Made by a program: the position numbers and the translations under genes. A stretch of 64,000 nucleotides of DNA from Escherichia coli O127:H6 str. E2348/69 (GTDB taxonomy: Bacteria > Pseudomonadota > Gammaproteobacteria > Enterobacterales > Enterobacteriaceae), in assembly GCF_000026545.1 (NCBI RefSeq), contig NC_011601.1; one strand, 5' to 3'. Each line of letters begins with the position of its first letter. Position 1 is the stretch's first letter. Positions 2,213 to 24,877 of this stretch are shown piece after piece. A model generated the notes under the pieces. That model did not search any database. It was not told the DNA's origin and saw only the letters and a list, made by a program, of their open reading frames with translations.

Positions 2213-2230
2213 GTGCGGAAAACCGCGCAT
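2213..2230. promoter_or_regulatory. Palindrome TGTGCGGAAAACCGCGCA, candidate enhancer (UAS) for a sigma-54 activator
   Basis: Near-perfect inverted repeat about 65 bp upstream of the sigma-54 -24 element at 2292; sigma-54 activator sites are typically palindromic and upstream. Confidence 0.3.
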
Positions 2231-2291
2231 AAAATAAAAAGGATAAATAGCTAACTCATTAAATAACAAAGCGTTATTAAAAAATTAAAGA

Positions 2292-2307
2292 TGGCATAGC
2301 TCCTGCA
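2292..2307 (+). promoter_or_regulatory. Sigma-54 (RpoN) -24/-12 promoter, TGGCAT-N5-CTGCA, for the transporter/dehydrogenase genes
   Basis: GG at 2293-2294 and GC at 2305-2306 with exact 10-nt spacing; about 40 bp upstream of the transporter start; a sigma-54 activator is encoded nearby (4921-6279). Confidence 0.55.
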
Positions 2308-2347
2308 ATAGCCAGGCAGGTTTTTTATTTTTCACAATGAGGTGAAT

Positions 2348-3847
2348 ATGTCATCAATATCCCATGGCGCACCACAAAAGCGTCGAATTATCCCTAATCC
2401 CGGCCTGTGGTTGGCGATCATTGCCGGAATTATTATTACCCTTCTGCCACTGGGCGATACCTTGCCCGTCGCCGGACAAAATATGATCGCCATTCTGGTG
2501 TTTGCCATTATTGTCTGGATCAGCGAAGCGATGGATTACACCGCCAGTGCAATTGTTATTTCCGCACTGATTATCTTTATGGTTGGTTTTGCCCCGGATA
2601 TGAATCACCCGGACACGATCCTTGGCACCGCGAAAGCGCTGAAAATGACTCTGTCGGGTTTTTCTAATTCTGCTCTGGCGCTGGTGGCAGCAGCAATGTT
2701 TATCGCGGCGGCAATGACCATTACCGGGCTGGATAAACGCATTGCGCTGTTTACTATGTCGAAAATAGGTGCCAGCAGCCGCAGCATTATTATCGGTGCC
2801 ATTGTGGTGACCATCGTCCTGAGCCTGGTCGTACCCAGTGCCACTGCCCGTACGGCTTGCGTGGTGCCGATTATGATGGGGGTCATTGCGGCATTTAAGG
2901 TGGATAAACATTCACGTTTAGCGGCGTCAATGATGATTGTTATCGCCCAGGCGACCAGTATCTGGAAAGTTGGTATTCAAACTTCGGCGGCGCAAAACCT
3001 GCTTTCTATCGGTTTTATCAATAAAACTTTCGGCGCCGGGCATTCTGTCAGCTGGCTTGACTGGCTGTTAGCGGGCGCGCCCTGGAGCCTCACCATGTCG
3101 GTGATCCTCTATTTCCTCGCACGTAAATTGTTGCCGCCAGAAACGGAAGCTGTTGAAGGGGGGAGCGAGGCCATTAAAAAAGCACTCGCAGAGTTAGGGC
3201 CAACCACCGGTAAAGAAAAACGCTTGATCGGTATTTCGCTGTTGTTACTGCTCTTTTGGTCTACTGGCGGAAAATTGCACAGTATTGATACCACCTCTGT
3301 CACCCTTGCCGGACTGGCGATTATGTTGCTGCCAGGCATCGGTGTAATGAGCTGGAAAGAGGTCGAAAAACGTGTGCAGTGGGGCACGTTGCTTATGTTT
3401 GGTATTGGTATCAGCCTGGGGTCCACGTTGCTTGATACACAGGCAGCTTCATGGATGGCGAACTATGTGGTGAAAGGTTTTGGTCTCGATGGCTTGCCAT
3501 CATTAGCCATCTTCGCGATTCTCGCCGCTTTCTTGATAATCATTCACCTGGGGTTTGCCAGTGCCACTGCGCTAACTGCCGCATTGCTGCCCATCCTGAT
3601 TAGCCTGTTAAGCAGTCTGCCGCCAGAACTCGGCGTTAACCCGGTCGGCATGACCATTCTGCTCGCCTTCAGTGTCAGTTTTGGCTTCATCCTGCCGATT
3701 AACGCGCCACAAAATATGGTGTGTATGGGTACGGATACCTTCACGCCACGCCAGTTTACCCGTGTGGGACTGTACCTGACGGTGATCGGCTACCTGTTGT
3801 TGCTACTGTTTGCCGCCACCTGGTGGAAAATTTTAGGTCTAATGTGA
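2348..3847 (+). CDS. Anion transporter, probably divalent anion:Na+ symporter (DASS/CitT-like) family; candidate alpha-ketoglutarate/dicarboxylate importer
   Basis: About 499 aa, highly hydrophobic with many predicted TM helices; ATG at 2348 preferred over in-frame GTG at 2342 (AGG RBS at 2340-2342); family assignment from overall resemblance, not a search. Confidence 0.75.
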   Translation: MSSISHGAPQKRRIIPNPGLWLAIIAGIIITLLPLGDTLPVAGQNMIAILVFAIIVWISEAMDYTASAIVISALIIFMVGFAPDMNHPDTILGTAKALKMTLSGFSNSALALVAAAMFIAAAMTITGLDKRIALFTMSKIGASSRSIIIGAIVVTIVLSLVVPSATARTACVVPIMMGVIAAFKVDKHSRLAASMMIVIAQATSIWKVGIQTSAAQNLLSIGFINKTFGAGHSVSWLDWLLAGAPWSLTMSVILYFLARKLLPPETEAVEGGSEAIKKALAELGPTTGKEKRLIGISLLLLLFWSTGGKLHSIDTTSVTLAGLAIMLLPGIGVMSWKEVEKRVQWGTLLMFGIGISLGSTLLDTQAASWMANYVVKGFGLDGLPSLAIFAILAAFLIIIHLGFASATALTAALLPILISLLSSLPPELGVNPVGMTILLAFSVSFGFILPINAPQNMVCMGTDTFTPRQFTRVGLYLTVIGYLLLLLFAATWWKILGLM

Positions 3848-3858
3848 GGAAACCAACG

Positions 3859-4932
3859 ATGTCATTACAAATTGCTGTTGAAAAAGTGCGTTGGTTAGCT
3901 GCCGGGCTGCTGGAACTTAATGGCTGTGATGCCGATATCGCTCAGGATGTGGCGGAACATATGATTGAAGCGGAACGTTATGGTTTTGCCAGCCACGGCG
4001 TCACGCTGCTACCGAAATATCTGGAAAATATCGCTCGTGGCGATGTAACCGCGAATGCCCGCCCGGAATGCTTAACAAGTGAAGGTAATTTACAACGTTT
4101 TCATGCCCACAATGGCTTTGGTCAACACGCCGGAAAAGTGGCGGTAAATGCTGCCATCGAACAAACAAAACACCGCGGTTTTTGCCTGTTAACGTTGTGC
4201 CATGCGCATCATTTAGGGCGTATGGGGCATTACGGGCAAATGGTTGCTGATCAAGGCCTGGCGATGCTGGCCATGAGTAACGTCACCGGGCGTCCGGCAC
4301 TGGTCGCCCCGTGGGGCGGTGCGGAACCGCGTATGACCACTAACCCTTTCTGCTTTGCCTGGCCGTTCAGTGATGGGCGTCCGCCGATTCTGGTTGATTT
4401 TGCCACCAGTAGCATGGCGCTAAATAAAGCACGGGTAATGTCGTCCACCGGGAAGCAGGCCGCGCCGGGACAATTGATCGATGCACAGGGGAATCCAAGC
4501 AATGATCCTGGGGTGTTATTCAGCAATCCTCCAGGGGCGTTACTGCCATTTGGTGAGCATAAAGGATTTGGCCTGGCACTGATGATTGAAATGATGGCGG
4601 GGATCTTATCTGGTGGTGACACGATCGCCGAAGATCATCAGACGGATGGATCTGCGCATAATCATCTTTTTGCGTTGATTATCGATCCTGATCAATTCAC
4701 CGATCTGGCAGGGGAGAAAGGGCAGTTCTTTGCGGATTATCTGTTAGCTACGCAGCCTCAACCTGGCGGCAATCCGGTGATTTACCCCGGTATGCCAGAA
4801 GCTGCCAACCGGGAACGCAATGCGAAGATGATTACGATCCCGGTATCATTCTGGTCCTGGGTAGTTGAACATTACGCCCGCAAAGGTATCGATTTGGGGT
4901 TACATCCTCAGGAATCAGCATTAGCTGGATGA
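3859..4932 (+). CDS. Ldh2-family (malate/L-lactate/ureidoglycolate dehydrogenase-like) NAD(P)-dependent oxidoreductase
   Basis: 357 aa from ATG 3859, with GAGGAA RBS 9 nt upstream and 11 nt after the transporter stop; the track ORF 3721-4932 has an N-terminal extension overlapping the transporter and is rejected; conserved HGxxxxPKY-type region (FASHGVTLLPKY). Confidence 0.75.
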   Translation: MSLQIAVEKVRWLAAGLLELNGCDADIAQDVAEHMIEAERYGFASHGVTLLPKYLENIARGDVTANARPECLTSEGNLQRFHAHNGFGQHAGKVAVNAAIEQTKHRGFCLLTLCHAHHLGRMGHYGQMVADQGLAMLAMSNVTGRPALVAPWGGAEPRMTTNPFCFAWPFSDGRPPILVDFATSSMALNKARVMSSTGKQAAPGQLIDAQGNPSNDPGVLFSNPPGALLPFGEHKGFGLALMIEMMAGILSGGDTIAEDHQTDGSAHNHLFALIIDPDQFTDLAGEKGQFFADYLLATQPQPGGNPVIYPGMPEAANRERNAKMITIPVSFWSWVVEHYARKGIDLGLHPQESALAG

Positions 4933-6279
4933 TTCTGGTCGATAAACTTGCGGTTGAATCTGATGTTTGTTGAGTTTGTCATATAAAGTCTTGCGCGGCA
5001 GCTGTAATAGCCGCGCTGTCAAACTGACCTGGCCTTCCGTTTGTCGCAGCATATCTTCGATTAACTTTTTCTCGAAAGCATCAATGCAGGCGGTAAGGCC
5101 ACTCTCTTCTTGCTGAGTCATTGGTACTGGCTGGTGGTGGGTCAGTAAACCGAGAACAAAACGCTCTGCATTGTGTTTAAGTTCACGTACATTGCCAGGC
5201 CAACTTTGTGACTGCAACCAGGCCAGTAACATGGGAGAAATATCAGGCAGAGGACGATTATATTTTTGTGCCGCCTGACTGGCGAACCAGTAAAACAGTT
5301 CAGGGATATCTTCTCGTCGTTGGCGTAGAGGTGGAATATTCAGGCTAACCACATTCAGACGATAATAGAGATCGAGACGAAACAGATGTTCTTCGCTGCG
5401 ACGCAGTAAATCTTCCTTGGTCGCTGCAATAACACGGCAATTCACCGGAATTAATTGATTGGCACCTAATCGTTCAATGGTTCTTTCCTGCAATACACGT
5501 AGCAGTTTTACCTGCATTCCTGATGGCATTCCCTCTATTTCATCGAGAAATAACGTACCACCATTTGCATGTTCAATTTTTCCAATACGCTTTTTAACCG
5601 CACCGGTAAATGCGCCCGCCTCATGACCAAATATTTCGCTTTCAAACAACGTTTCTGGTAAGCCTGCACAGTTTAAGGCAACAAACTGCCCCTGACGGCG
5701 GGTACTCCAGTGATGCAGCATTCTGGCGACGACTTCTTTACCACAACCTGTTTCACCATAAATAAGGACATCGGCACCGGTATCTGCGACATTAAGGATC
5801 ATTTTACGCAGTTGTTGCATCTGCGGACTACGACCAATCAGCACCGGGCCATTTTCCTGTTGCAGATTCGCCAGTAATTGCTGATTTTCTAAAACCAATC
5901 GCCGTTTTTCTACCGCTCTGGCAATAATACTCAATAATTTATCTGAGCTACTTGGTTTCTCAATGAAATCGAATGCACCATTACGCATGGCATCCACCGC
6001 CATTTCCACGTCACCGTGTCCGGTAATTAAAATAACCGGAATTTTGCTATCCATTTCGTTGATGTAACTGAGGAGCTCTAGTCCTGATATTCCAGGTAAC
6101 CTGACATCGGTCAGTATAATAATGTTGGCCTGACTTTGAATAAGGGGAATACTGTGTTCTGCATCGCAACAGGAAATAACACGATAACCAGCCAGCGTGA
6201 GCGTTTGTTCACAGGCAAAACGTACATCGTCACTATCCTCAATATAAACTATAGTAATTTCACTGGATTTATTATTCAT
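4921..6279 (-). CDS. kguR: Sigma-54-dependent response regulator (NtrC family: receiver + AAA+ sigma-54 activator + HTH); consistent with KguR
   Basis: 452 aa; receiver domain with conserved D (IIILTDVRLPG); Walker A GETGCGKE; GAFTGA sigma-54 contact motif; C-terminal HTH; stop overlaps the 3' end of the convergent dehydrogenase gene. Confidence 0.8.
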   Translation of the reverse strand: MNNKSSEITIVYIEDSDDVRFACEQTLTLAGYRVISCCDAEHSIPLIQSQANIIILTDVRLPGISGLELLSYINEMDSKIPVILITGHGDVEMAVDAMRNGAFDFIEKPSSSDKLLSIIARAVEKRRLVLENQQLLANLQQENGPVLIGRSPQMQQLRKMILNVADTGADVLIYGETGCGKEVVARMLHHWSTRRQGQFVALNCAGLPETLFESEIFGHEAGAFTGAVKKRIGKIEHANGGTLFLDEIEGMPSGMQVKLLRVLQERTIERLGANQLIPVNCRVIAATKEDLLRRSEEHLFRLDLYYRLNVVSLNIPPLRQRREDIPELFYWFASQAAQKYNRPLPDISPMLLAWLQSQSWPGNVRELKHNAERFVLGLLTHHQPVPMTQQEESGLTACIDAFEKKLIEDMLRQTEGQVSLTARLLQLPRKTLYDKLNKHQIQPQVYRPESSS

Positions 6280-8092
6280 GTTCTTCTCCCCATTCAGGCC
6301 AGGTTAATGTCATTACTGCGCCGCCTTCAGGATGATTACTGGCGTGGAGTGCGCCGTTCGAATTTCGGACAATTTCGCTGACTATTGCCAGTCCCAACCC
6401 CATTCCTCTACGTTTAGTGGTAAAAAATGGTTCAAATATGCGATCGACAACTTCAGGTGCAAAACCGCCACCGCTGTCTTTAATGGTAATAATAACTTTG
6501 TTATTTGCCTGGCGAATGGCGATATCCAGTCGTTTGTAAGAGCTACCTTCCATAGAATCTAAGGCGTTGCTAATTAAATTACTGAATATCTGTTCAAGAC
6601 CGAGCTCATCGCAATTGACAAATAACGGCATGGATGGGGCTTTTATTCGTCGCTCAATATTATTTTTCTCCATGCTGTGATTAAGTAACGCCACGGCGCT
6701 ATACATCACTTTGATGACATCGGCAGAACCTTTAGGTACGCGATGGCGCGAGGCAAATGCTTTAAGTTCGGAAATGAGCTGCGTCATCCGCTCAATCACT
6801 GAAATAATGTGTTTCAGATTCTGTTCAACCTGCGGATACATCTCTTTTTTTAGCATAGTACGCGCGTTATCAGTAAGTGCGTGAATGGCGGCTAACGGTT
6901 GATTTTGTTCATGGGCAATTTCGGTTGCCATCTGTCCAAGCGCCGCCAGTTTGCTGGACTCTGCCAGTTCACTACGCGTAATTTGTAATACTTGTTCAGC
7001 CTGACTGCGCTCTTTTATCTCCTGTATTAATTTTTGATTGATCAATTCCAGGGCAGATGTACGCTCTTTAACCTGTTTCTCTAATGTTTCATTCGCCAGT
7101 GTTAATAATTGTTGTGCATGAGATCGCATTCTCCAGTATTTAATAAATAACAAAAACAGCAGGTAAATAATTAGCGTAATGACTAACGAAATAGCCCATG
7201 ACCAGTACAGGTTATCTAAGGGGACCATAATTGTCATTTTCCAGTTAAATTCTGGAATGGCTATTTGTTGCGTATAATATTGCGGGAATAAACAGAGTTG
7301 TTCTTTTTTATCTTTCAGGAAAGTAAAATTGCTCACGGTATAACAGGGATAATAATCCGCCGGTAAAAGATTGTCGAGACTATATTGGCGGGTAGATTGT
7401 AGTTTTTGTTTTGCCTGAACAGGTAACGGTTGCAGTGTTCGCATTCGCCATGGCGATTTTGAACTTAAAAATATAATCCCATGTTCATCATTCACGATAA
7501 TATTTTCAGGACCTTCGGCCCATGCTTTTTCAATTTCATTAAGACTTATTTTTACTACTACAACACCGACAATTTTTCCTTTATCTTTTATACTTGTAGA
7601 GAGGAAGAATCCCGGTGTATTCGTAGTGCTACCAATACCGTAAAAGCGTCCATTTAAGCCAGACATGGCGTGTTTATAATAGGGGCGATAGCTATAATTT
7701 TGCCCTACATAGCTGCCGGGGTCCTGCCAGTTGCTAGAAGCGATGGCCTTACCTTGGGTATCCAGAATAAATATTGCTGCGGTTTTGAGTTGAGTATTGA
7801 AATGTGCAATTCGTTGATTGAGTTCGCTGGACATCATATCGTCAGGCGTAATTACCGCCTGACGGATGATATGGTCTGTTGAGAGCATATAGGGTAAAAC
7901 ATAAAATTGCTCGATGGTGGAATATAATGTGGACTTATACATTTCAAGCCGCATTTTATCGGTACCGGACAAGGTATTAAAACGCAAGTGCAAAAAAGCG
8001 ATTGAAACCGCGAGCATGATAAGAAAAAGTGAAATGCTTGTAATGTGAAATCGCCATTTGTTCTTAAATATATAATTCCACGATATTTTCAT
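6272..8092 (-). CDS. kguS: Membrane sensor histidine kinase with periplasmic sensing domain; consistent with KguS
   Basis: 606 aa; two TM segments flanking a roughly 260-aa periplasmic region; H-box (ATEIAHEQNQPL) and HATPase_c motifs; 8-nt overlap with the downstream regulator gene. Confidence 0.8.
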   Translation of the reverse strand: MKISWNYIFKNKWRFHITSISLFLIMLAVSIAFLHLRFNTLSGTDKMRLEMYKSTLYSTIEQFYVLPYMLSTDHIIRQAVITPDDMMSSELNQRIAHFNTQLKTAAIFILDTQGKAIASSNWQDPGSYVGQNYSYRPYYKHAMSGLNGRFYGIGSTTNTPGFFLSTSIKDKGKIVGVVVVKISLNEIEKAWAEGPENIIVNDEHGIIFLSSKSPWRMRTLQPLPVQAKQKLQSTRQYSLDNLLPADYYPCYTVSNFTFLKDKKEQLCLFPQYYTQQIAIPEFNWKMTIMVPLDNLYWSWAISLVITLIIYLLFLLFIKYWRMRSHAQQLLTLANETLEKQVKERTSALELINQKLIQEIKERSQAEQVLQITRSELAESSKLAALGQMATEIAHEQNQPLAAIHALTDNARTMLKKEMYPQVEQNLKHIISVIERMTQLISELKAFASRHRVPKGSADVIKVMYSAVALLNHSMEKNNIERRIKAPSMPLFVNCDELGLEQIFSNLISNALDSMEGSSYKRLDIAIRQANNKVIITIKDSGGGFAPEVVDRIFEPFFTTKRRGMGLGLAIVSEIVRNSNGALHASNHPEGGAVMTLTWPEWGEEHE

Positions 8093-8272
8093 TCATCATC
8101 CATTGAATGCATTTATATTTATCATCAGTATATTCCCTGAACAATGTTTGCGAGAACCAAAAGAGTGCCATTGTGTGAATGTGTAAGCAGAATAACCGTG
8201 GCAATGTGTGGTTTATCGCACAGGTATTCCAAATGTGATCATGCTCTTTTTATGTGACAAATCCGCAGATAA

Positions 8273-9082
<810 letters not shown>

Positions 9083-22918: not shown

Positions 22919-24877
22919 TTACGATGGCATCGCGATGGCCTGCTTCTCTTCAAGCAGCTTCTCGACTACGCCAGGATCGGCAAGCGTCGAGGTATCGCCC
23001 AGGTTGCTGGTATCGCCCGCCGCAATTTTGCGCAGAATACGGCGCATAATTTTGCCGGAGCGGGTTTTAGGCAGGGAGTCGGTCCAGTGCAGCACGTCTG
23101 GCGTCGCCAGCGGGCCAATCTCTTTACGCACCCAGTTGCGGACTTCTGCGTACAGTTCTGGTGACGGTTCCTCCCCGTGATTAAGCGTGACGTAGGCGTA
23201 GATCGCCTGACCTTTAATATTGTGCGGAATACCGACCACAGCGGCTTCGGCAATTTTCGGATGCGCCACCAGCGCCGACTCAATCTCTGCCGTCCCCAGG
23301 CGGTGACCGGAGACGTTCAGCACGTCGTCAACGCGCCCGGTGATCCAGTAATAGCCATCTTCATCGCGACGCGCGCCGTCGCCGCTGAAATACATATTTT
23401 TGAAGGTGGAGAAGTAGGTCTGCTCAAAACGTTCGTGATCGCCAAACAGCGTACGCGCCTGACCCGGCCAGGAGTCGGTGATCACCAGACTGCCTTCGGT
23501 GGCCCCCTCCAGCGGGTTACCTTCGTTATCGACCAGCGCTGGTTGCACGCCGAAGAACGGACGTGTTGCCGAACCGGCTTTCAGCTCGGTAGCGCCAGGC
23601 AGTGGCGTGATCATGAAACCGCCAGTTTCGGTCTGCCACCAGGTGTCGACCACCGGGCATTTCTCGTTGCCGATCTTCTTCCAGTACCACTCCCACGCTT
23701 CCGGGTTAATTGGCTCGCCCACGGAACCGAGAATGCGCAGCGACGAACGGTCGGTGCCTTCGATCGCTTTATCGCCTTCCGCCATCAGCGCGCGAATCGC
23801 CGTGGGCGCGGTATAGAGAATATTGACCTGATGCTTGTCCACCACTTGCGCCATACGGGCAGGCGTCGGCCAGTTCGGTACGCCTTCAAACATCAGCGTG
23901 GTCGCGCCGCAGGCCAGCGGGCCATACAGCAAATAACTGTGTCCGGTAACCCAGCCCACATCGGCGGTGCACCAGTAGATGTCGCCCGGATGATAATCAA
24001 AGACATATTTAAAGGTCAGCGCCGCGTACACCAGATAACCGCCGGTAGTGTGCAGCACGCCTTTTGGCTTACCGGTAGAACCGGAGGTATAGAGAATAAA
24101 CAGCGGGTCTTCGGCGTTCATCTCTTCCGCCTGGTGCTGATCGCTCGCTTGCTCAACCAGGTCGTGCCACCACAGGTCGCGCCCTTCCTGCCAGTCAATT
24201 TTCCCGCCAGTACGCTTCAGTACCACCACATGCTCTACGCTGGTGACGTTCGGGTTTTTTAGTGCGTCATCGACGTTTTTCTTCAGTGGAATGCTGCGCC
24301 CGGCACGCACACCTTCGTCGGAAGTGATCACCAACCGTGAGTTGGAATCGATAATGCGTCCGGCAACGGCTTCCGGCGAGAAGCCGCCGAAAATTACCGA
24401 ATGCACCGCGCCAATGCGGGCGCAGGCCAGCATCGCGACCGCGGCTTCCGGCACCATCGGCATATAAATCGCCACCACATCACCTTTTTTAATGCCCAGC
24501 TCGAGCAGGGTATTGGCGAAGCGGCAGACGTCGCGGTGCAGCTCTTTATAGCTGATATGTTTGCTCTGGCTGGCGTCGTCGCCTTCCCAGATGATGGCGG
24601 TACGATCGCCGTTTTCTTGCAGATGGCGGTCAAGGCAGTTTGCCGCCAGATTCAGCGTGCCGTCCTCGTACCATTTAATGGACACATTACCGGGGGCAAA
24701 GGAGGTGTTTTTCACCTTCTGGTACGGTGTGATCCAGTCGAGAATTTTTCCCTGTTCGCCCCAGAAGGTATCTGGTGCGTTAATAGATTGTTGATACATC
24801 GCCTCGTACTGCTGAGGGTTTATCAGGCAACGGTCTGCGATGTTGGCAGGAATGGTGTGTTTGTGAATTTGACTCAT
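22919..24877 (-). CDS. acs: Acetyl-CoA synthetase Acs
   Basis: 652 aa; [31 protein letters not shown]...; AMP-binding motifs. Confidence 0.97.

Follow-up and report, generated by a model that had tools for sequence, protein, structure and literature searches.

The sigma-54 promoter and KguR site in front of the alpha-ketoglutarate symporter operon of Escherichia coli E2348/69

What drives the transcription of a transporter gene and a dehydrogenase gene that lie beside an NtrC-type regulator gene in the EPEC strain Escherichia coli O127:H6 E2348/69? A preliminary description, made from the sequence alone, had proposed a sigma-54 promoter and an upstream palindrome in front of the pair and had asked whether they were already mapped. 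They were, in the UPEC strain CFT073, and the checks that it proposed are largely already published. The publications on CFT073 show the transcription start site (TSS), the rpoN requirement, the binding of RpoN, the site-dependent binding of KguR, the operon limits and the induction by alpha-ketoglutarate. We analyzed a window of 64 kb (64,000 nucleotides of contig NC_011601.1) and are highly confident that its positions 2182–2318 form the control region of the c5038–c5039 operon, the part of the KguS/KguR island that encodes an alpha-ketoglutarate symporter and an oxidoreductase of the Ldh family. The feature is thus the already mapped sigma-54 promoter with its KguR site; the preliminary description was right, and the finding is not new.

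Since the biology is already published, the promoter adds no new knowledge in itself. The new content consists of modest refinements, namely, a fixed DctD-type register of the KguR site and, as probable additions, a second site and one for IHF. These refinements would mainly help in designing footprinting, reporter and ChIP experiments and in judging which of the predicted KguR targets are direct. The promoter controls the uptake of alpha-ketoglutarate, which is abundant in kidney tubule cells, and the c5038 transporter adds to the fitness of UPEC in the mouse bladder and kidney (PMC5318444).

Operon limits and the sigma-54 promoter

According to the RefSeq annotation of the region, E2348/69 carries the KguS/KguR island between tyrB and aphA. 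The order is tyrB, a 2-oxoglutarate dehydrogenase E1 gene (sucA-like), odhB, lpdA, sucC, sucD, the DASS symporter gene and the Ldh oxidoreductase gene, followed on the opposite strand by kguR and kguS, and then aphA. This gene content and order equal the published description of the alpha-ketoglutarate utilization island, c5032–c5041 of UPEC CFT073 (PMC3694859). The first 8.3 kb of the window are 100% identical to E2348/69, and 1045 of the 5426 complete genomes of E. coli contain this stretch.

The upstream c5032–c5037 operon ends with a sucD-like gene (c5037 orthologue; 1264–2136, + strand; present in the open reading frame list and annotated by RefSeq as succinate--CoA ligase subunit alpha). 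It is followed by an intrinsic terminator at 2153–2179 on the + strand (stem 2153–2173, T-run to 2179), which was identified by a terminator scan and by its fold energy of −18.4 kcal/mol (z = −4.15; equaled by none of 200 shuffles). In the 10-sequence alignment, the Citrobacter stem is preserved by a compensatory A-T to G-C change (GGGAGC/GCTCCC versus GGGGGC/GCCCCC). An Rfam scan of 1900–2700 with E-values up to 1 returned sub-threshold matches on the terminator hairpin only and no known RNA element. A second candidate hairpin, CCTGC…GCAGG with a T-run over the TSS (2302–2331), was rejected, as it folds like its shuffles (z = 0.05).

The first gene of the downstream unit, the c5038 orthologue (2348–3847, + strand), encodes a DASS-family anion symporter (RefSeq; TIGR00785 at 240 bits, over the cut-off), for which the function of anaerobic alpha-ketoglutarate importer is taken from PMC5318444. 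Its ATG lies at 2348, in agreement with the RefSeq start, and is preceded by a ribosome-binding site, GAGGT (2339–2343, + strand), that is invariant in all 10 aligned sequences. After a gap of 11 nt comes the gene of the Ldh_2-family oxidoreductase (c5039 orthologue; 3859–4932, + strand; RefSeq), whose match to the malate/lactate/ureidoglycolate dehydrogenase family is under the cut-off. RT-PCR in CFT073 showed that c5032–5037 and c5038–5039 are two separate operons (PMC3694859), with the latter co-transcribing the transporter and oxidoreductase genes. The proposals that a terminator (placed at 2154–2179) parts the pair from the sucCD-like genes and that the pair forms its own transcription unit are therefore both borne out.

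The sigma-54 promoter, TGGCAT-N5-CTGCA (TGGCATagctcCTGCA), occupies 2292–2307 on the + strand. Direct reading gives TGGCAT at 2292–2297, AGCTC at 2298–2302 and CTGCA at 2303–2307, with a gap of exactly 10 nt between GG (2293–2294) and GC (2305–2306), and the distance from the end of the motif to the transporter ATG is 41 nt; the position, the GG-N10-GC spacing and the distance of about 40 bp in the preliminary description all agree with this reading. Compared with the TGGCAC-N5-TTGCW consensus, TGGCATagctcCTGCA has two mismatches, both outside GG and GC. In CFT073, 5'-RACE placed the c5038 TSS at an 'A' at −30 from the start codon, and the −24/−12 motif was pointed out (Cai 2017, PMC5318444). 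Since CFT073 and the window share every base from TGGCAT to the ATG, the published TSS maps to A2318 (+ strand), and the base is A both here and in CFT073 (L021 position 323). The start thus lies 12 nt past the GC element (C2306), as had been expected from the motif, and GG at −25/−24 and GC at −13/−12 form the textbook sigma-54 geometry.

Furthermore, the deletion of rpoN in CFT073 abolishes the alpha-ketoglutarate induction of c5038, plasmid-borne rpoN restores it, and His6-RpoN shifts the c5038 promoter DNA in an EMSA (PMC5318444), so the proposed RpoN dependence of the unit holds for that strain. All of the published promoter experiments were carried out in CFT073 and not in E2348/69; the two strains show 10 differences over 231 intergenic positions, none of them in the sigma-54 core or in the 18-bp KguR dyad, which is identical in both.

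How far does this arrangement extend beyond E. coli? The transporter protein was scanned against one genome per species, which gave 16 loci, and tblastn was then run with six island proteins. Loci L005–L013 (E. albertii, three Citrobacter, Klebsiella indica, Entomohabitans, Pectobacterium, Vibrio and a MAG identical to Vibrio) keep Ldh, kguR and kguS beside the transporter gene; six homologues from Burkholderiales, Azotobacter and relatives (L014–L019) are without kguSR. One further locus, L020, is an E. coli-like contig with the same promoter that ends inside the transporter gene, so that its kguSR region lies beyond the contig end. Every kguSR locus, and L020 as well, has TGGCAY-N5-CTGCA between −56 and −60 relative to the ATG and, 79–82 bp upstream of TGGCA, a TGTGYGG-N4-YCRCRCA dyad; neither the motif nor the dyad occurs in any of the six loci without kguSR. 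A 10-sequence alignment covering six genera (Escherichia, Citrobacter, K. indica, Entomohabitans, Pectobacterium and Vibrio) has a mean column identity of 68%; TGGCA, CTGCA, GAGGT and the dyad core (T65, G66, T67, G68, G70, G71, …, C77, C79, A82) are invariant. The architecture is therefore conserved across genera.

Some features of the individual loci should be mentioned. The gap between sucD and the transporter gene is ~590–730 bp in K. indica and Entomohabitans compared with 211 bp in E. coli, with the extra sequence inserted upstream of the conserved enhancer (L009 5410–6000 and L010 5271–6000, respectively). In its promoter and in its protein-match identities, a contig from a 'Flavobacteriia' MAG equals Vibrio sp. 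Y2-5 (L011 versus L012), and a 'Citrobacter' MAG contig (L020) matches E. coli, with a transporter N-terminus at 100% and the promoter as in CFT073. Both contigs are probably mis-binned.

Could the GG-N10-GC motif be a chance occurrence, with c5038–c5039 expressed by read-through from c5032–c5037 or from a sigma-70 promoter? Taken alone, the motif does not exceed the chance expectation for 64 kb: the sigma-54 consensus at up to 2 mismatches gives 38 matches in the window versus 44.7 expected, and an exact TGGCAY-N5-YTGCW search gives 1 match versus 0.47 expected, with at least one match in 34 of 100 shuffles. This statistically unremarkable score is what speaks for coincidence. However, the strong terminator between sucD and the promoter and the published RT-PCR (PMC3694859) argue against read-through, and a scan of the + strand over 1900–2700 found no sigma-70-like promoter. 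Neither TGGCA nor CTGCA varies across the six genera, and the 5'-RACE start 12 nt past GC, together with the loss of expression upon rpoN deletion (PMC5318444), already refutes the chance explanation, to which we give practically no credence. The reality of the sigma-54 motif is carried by its context and by its conservation across six genera.

The KguR dyad and its register

The regulator gene beside the operon, kguR (c5040 orthologue; 4921–6279, − strand), encodes an NtrC/DctD-type sigma-54 enhancer-binding response regulator. Its Pfam domains are Response_reg (PF00072), Sigma54_activat (PF00158, 1.8e-67), an AAA lid and HTH_8 (PF02954); its translation contains GAFTGA; and its receiver domain matches the S. 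meliloti DctD structures 1qkk and 1l5y. The sensor histidine kinase is encoded by kguS (c5041 orthologue; 6272–8092, − strand; RefSeq and histidine-kinase family matches).

The upstream activating sequence (UAS) of the operon is the proximal KguR palindrome TGTGCGGAAAACCGCGCA at 2212–2229, which is identified by its sequence, by published EMSA and by its conservation. It had been described as a near-perfect palindrome, and so it is, with arms of 7 nt that differ by one mismatch (TGTGCGG versus TGCGCGG) and AAAA between them; only the coordinates, given as 2213–2230, were one base off. The dyad is centered at ~−97.5 from the TSS and ends 62 nt before TGGCAT. With the minimum length set to 12, an inverted-repeat finder run over 2130–2350 missed the palindrome, whose arms measure only 7 nt, and it was therefore verified by direct reading and by a pattern search. 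Without mismatch, TGTGYGR-N4-YCRCRCA occurs in the 64-kb window only at 2212 and 8205, both published KguR sites, although the pattern was derived partly from those two sites and the number expected with up to 1 mismatch is ~1.

In CFT073, MBP-KguR shifts a Pc5038 fragment covering −163 to +32, for which the site TGTGCG-N8-CGCACA was proposed (Cai 2013, PMC3694859). Later, the site was given as TGTGCGGAAAACCGCGCACA, and KguR failed to shift a Pc5038 probe without the motif, as it did with the corresponding kguS probe (Cai 2021, PMC8716947). This site-dependent binding, together with the presence of the REC, AAA+ (GAFTGA) and HTH_8 modules, agrees with the earlier proposal that the adjacent NtrC-type regulator drives the unit via the palindrome.

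Which bases of the palindrome does KguR read? The base directly 3' of the dyad, at 2230, is T in E2348/69 and C in CFT073, Nissle 1917, E. albertii and other E. coli alleles, and this natural variant separates the published N8 register from a DctD-type N6 register. The N8 reading rests on the CFT073 sequence CGCGCACA, which the T at 2230 turns into CGCGCATA in E2348/69. At the right end of the dyad, other genera have CACGCAtt, CGCGCAtt, CACTCAat or CGCACAgt, and only the 18-bp register, with hexamers spaced 6 nt apart, is conserved across genera at Pc5038; the kguS site is likewise N6 in all genera. The Rhizobium meliloti DctD site is also an 18-bp dyad, TGTGCGgaaatCCGCACA (PMC11077940), and the window dyad TGTGCGGAAAACCGCGCA equals it at 16 of 18 bases. 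This match, in the same register, suggests that KguR uses a DctD-type recognition sequence. Judged by the aligned sequences, the conserved site is better supported as an 18-bp DctD-type dyad than in the published N8 reading, and the 18-bp palindrome of the preliminary description is better backed by cross-genus conservation than TGTGCG-N8-CGCACA.

On the other hand, KguR might read hexamers with variable spacing, as published (N8 at c5038, N13 at c5032 and N5–15 genome-wide), and recognize no fixed 18-bp dyad. The CFT073 sequence TGTGCGGAAAACCGCGCACA does have perfect hexamers at N8, and a c5032 probe with the N13 candidate alone was shifted by KguR (PMC3694859). However, the T at 2230 in E2348/69 breaks the right arm of the N8 form (CGCATA) and leaves the 18-bp dyad intact, and Citrobacter, K. 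indica, Entomohabitans, Pectobacterium and Vibrio retain only the N6 register. The kguS site is N6 wherever it was compared, the DctD site of Rhizobium has this same 18-bp form, and the N13 candidate lies within the tyrB coding sequence. For these reasons, we regard variable spacing as unlikely.

The fixed 18-bp dyad has consequences beyond Pc5038. The published genome-wide KguR search used a loose consensus of N5–15 and reported N9, N13 and N15 sites within the coding sequences of sitA, tyrB and appA (PMC8716947), and these sites are doubtful on a fixed-register reading. If the register is indeed fixed, most of the 22 variable-spacing genome-wide 'KguR sites', including those in sitA, appA and tyrB, would not be real, and the broad KguR regulon would then be indirect. 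Elsewhere in the window, the KguR/DctD-type PWM gives 17.8 bits at 23221–23238 (TGTGCGGAATACCGACCA), a match that is probably due to chance since a 652-aa ORF of the − strand (22919–24877) spans it.

A putative distal site, an IHF-like element and a model of activation

Upstream of the dyad lies a conserved heptamer, TGTGTGG (2182–2188), the left part of a putative distal and weaker KguR site at 2182–2199 whose right half is degenerate (…AATCA). In Escherichia, Citrobacter, K. indica and Entomohabitans, a TGTGYGS heptamer precedes the proximal heptamer by exactly 30 bp, and in Pectobacterium it does so by 31 bp; Vibrio lacks it at that position and has a half-site 23 bp downstream instead. As a full dyad, the E. 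coli distal element reaches <6 bits with a symmetric PWM derived from orthologous KguR sites, and because the PWM scores no full dyad, we give the element as a half-site only. The conserved spacing would fit a second, weaker KguR site 30 bp upstream of the dyad. The 2013 EMSA probe (−163 to +32, corresponding to 2185–2379) cuts through this distal heptamer. At dctA, the UAS contains two adjacent DctD sites of very unequal affinity (PMC11077940, citing Ledebur and Nixon 1992 and Scholl and Nixon 1996).

Might the palindrome, the distal TGTGTGG…TCAC or both serve chiefly as a site for another regulator, for example CRP or FNR, that mediates anaerobic or carbon control? Their dyads, TGTGA…TCACA and TTGAT…ATCAA, are similar, the distal TGTG…TCAC is loosely CRP-like, and c5038 expression is stimulated by FNR and by ArcA, the latter of which does not bind the promoter (PMC5318444). 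However, KguR binding needs the proximal motif (PMC8716947), and the spacing fits neither the 16-bp CRP dyad nor the 14-bp FNR dyad. The oxygen effect has been attributed to the control of kguSR expression (PMC3694859), and the element co-occurs with kguSR across genera. Binding mainly by CRP or FNR is therefore very unlikely.

Between the UAS and the −24 element, the sequence TAACAAAGCGTTA (2264–2276, + strand; centered at ~−48) resembles an IHF site, with one mismatch to WATCAANNNNTTR. With one mismatch allowed, IHF matches often arise by chance (63 found versus 50 expected), so the support for this element comes from its fixed position only. A WAWCAA-N4-TTA element begins 28–29 bp before TGGCA in Escherichia, K. 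indica, Entomohabitans, Pectobacterium and Vibrio, and in Entomohabitans it is a perfect AATCAATAAATTA. Within a spacer that is AT-rich and varies elsewhere, the alignment columns A116, A118, C120, A121, T128 and A129 are invariant. The positional conservation marks the element as a putative IHF site at ~−48; the 2017 paper does not mention IHF (PMC5318444).

Taken together, these elements suggest the following sequence of events. Transcription of c5032–c5037 would end at the terminator (2153–2179), and sigma-54 RNA polymerase would form a closed complex on TGGCAT-N5-CTGCA (2292–2307). When KguS senses alpha-ketoglutarate, KguR would be phosphorylated and would occupy the 18-bp dyad (2212–2229, centered at ~−97.5), probably nucleating on the weaker half-site at 2182–2188 (~−127.5) and probably binding cooperatively with it. 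By analogy with NtrC and DctD, KguR would then oligomerize to an AAA+ ring and reach the polymerase and sigma-54 through a DNA loop, which the IHF-like site (2264–2276, ~−48) would probably aid. The parts given to the distal site and to IHF follow from their conservation and from the same NtrC/DctD analogy. Finally, ATP used by KguR would open the promoter, leading to a start at A2318 and a c5038–c5039 mRNA with a 30-nt leader.

We give about an even chance to the stronger proposal that KguR reads a fixed 18-bp dyad, TGTGYGR-N4-YCRCRCA, and that Pc5038 is a composite enhancer that combines a strong dyad with a weaker half-site 30 bp farther upstream and with IHF bending at ~−48, in which case the published picture would be incomplete and partly wrong in its register.

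Known systems and the other promoters of the island

The closest known system is Pc5038 of UPEC CFT073 itself (Cai 2013, PLoS Pathog; 2017 and 2021, Front Microbiol), with the same locus, gene order, regulator and operon and with an identical sigma-54 core, TSS context, ribosome-binding site and 18-bp dyad. It differs in that the window strain is EPEC E2348/69, with 10 substitutions per 231 bp, one of which (2230, C to T) lies just outside the dyad. Furthermore, the published description of CFT073 gives the N8 register and a single site and mentions neither the distal half-site nor IHF.

The dctA promoter of R. (Sinorhizobium) meliloti is likewise a sigma-54 promoter of a dicarboxylate transporter gene, and is activated by a REC/AAA+/HTH response regulator encoded nearby; TGTGCGgaaatCCGCACA matches the window dyad at 16 of 18 bases, and dctA has two adjacent sites of unequal affinity. 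On the other hand, dctA serves C4-dicarboxylates rather than alpha-ketoglutarate, its transporter is of the DctA/DAACS rather than the DASS type, and the second site in the window is a predicted conserved half-site.

At E. coli glnAp2, phosphorylated NtrC binds two sites ~100–140 bp upstream that are about three helical turns apart, oligomerizes and drives ATP-dependent opening. The general mechanism, a sigma-54 closed complex and a phosphorylated activator, is shared with Pc5038, whereas the recognition sequence and the signal differ, and glnAp2 works without IHF, unlike Pc5038 with its conserved IHF-like element. MifS/MifR of P. aeruginosa, a DctB/DctD-like two-component pair with specificity for alpha-ketoglutarate, switches on the alpha-ketoglutarate transporter gene PA5530 through a sigma-54 promoter; in contrast to the island, PA5530 is of the MFS rather than the DASS type and has no linked extra cluster of 2-oxoglutarate dehydrogenase and succinyl-CoA synthetase genes.

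Two further promoters of the island deserve comment. Upstream of the window, a good sigma-54 motif, TTGGTACggattGTGCA (L001 2647–2663), belongs to the c5032 operon. The published c5032 KguR site, TGTGTG-N13-CGCGCA, lies within the tyrB coding sequence and out of the N6 register (L001 2450–2474), and the best N6 candidate in the c5032 intergenic region, TGTCCCTTTTTTCGCCCA (L001 2577–2594), is weak at 6.7 bits. The loci fetched from relatives end inside the E1 gene, short of the c5032 promoter.

The intergenic region between kguS and aphA (8093–8368) contains a conserved full KguR dyad and no conserved GG-N10-GC. This second full palindrome, TGTGCGATAAACCACACA read towards kguS (8205–8222), is the autoregulation site and is identified by pattern and PWM matches, by conservation and by published EMSA (PMC8716947). 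A candidate sigma-54 promoter for kguS, TGGCAC-N5-TGGTT in E. coli (TGGCACtctttTGGTT, 8155–8170, − strand), was rejected, as it is without GC and is not conserved. TGGCACtctttTGGTT decays in E. albertii, Citrobacter and K. indica, and what is conserved instead is a −10-like GGAATATACT. The autoregulation of kguSR has been published as positive (PMC8716947). With the dyad conserved and GG-N10-GC not, a sigma-54 activator thus seems to autoactivate a sigma-70-type promoter, and the mifSR promoter of P. aeruginosa is without a −24/−12 motif, as that of kguSR appears to be.
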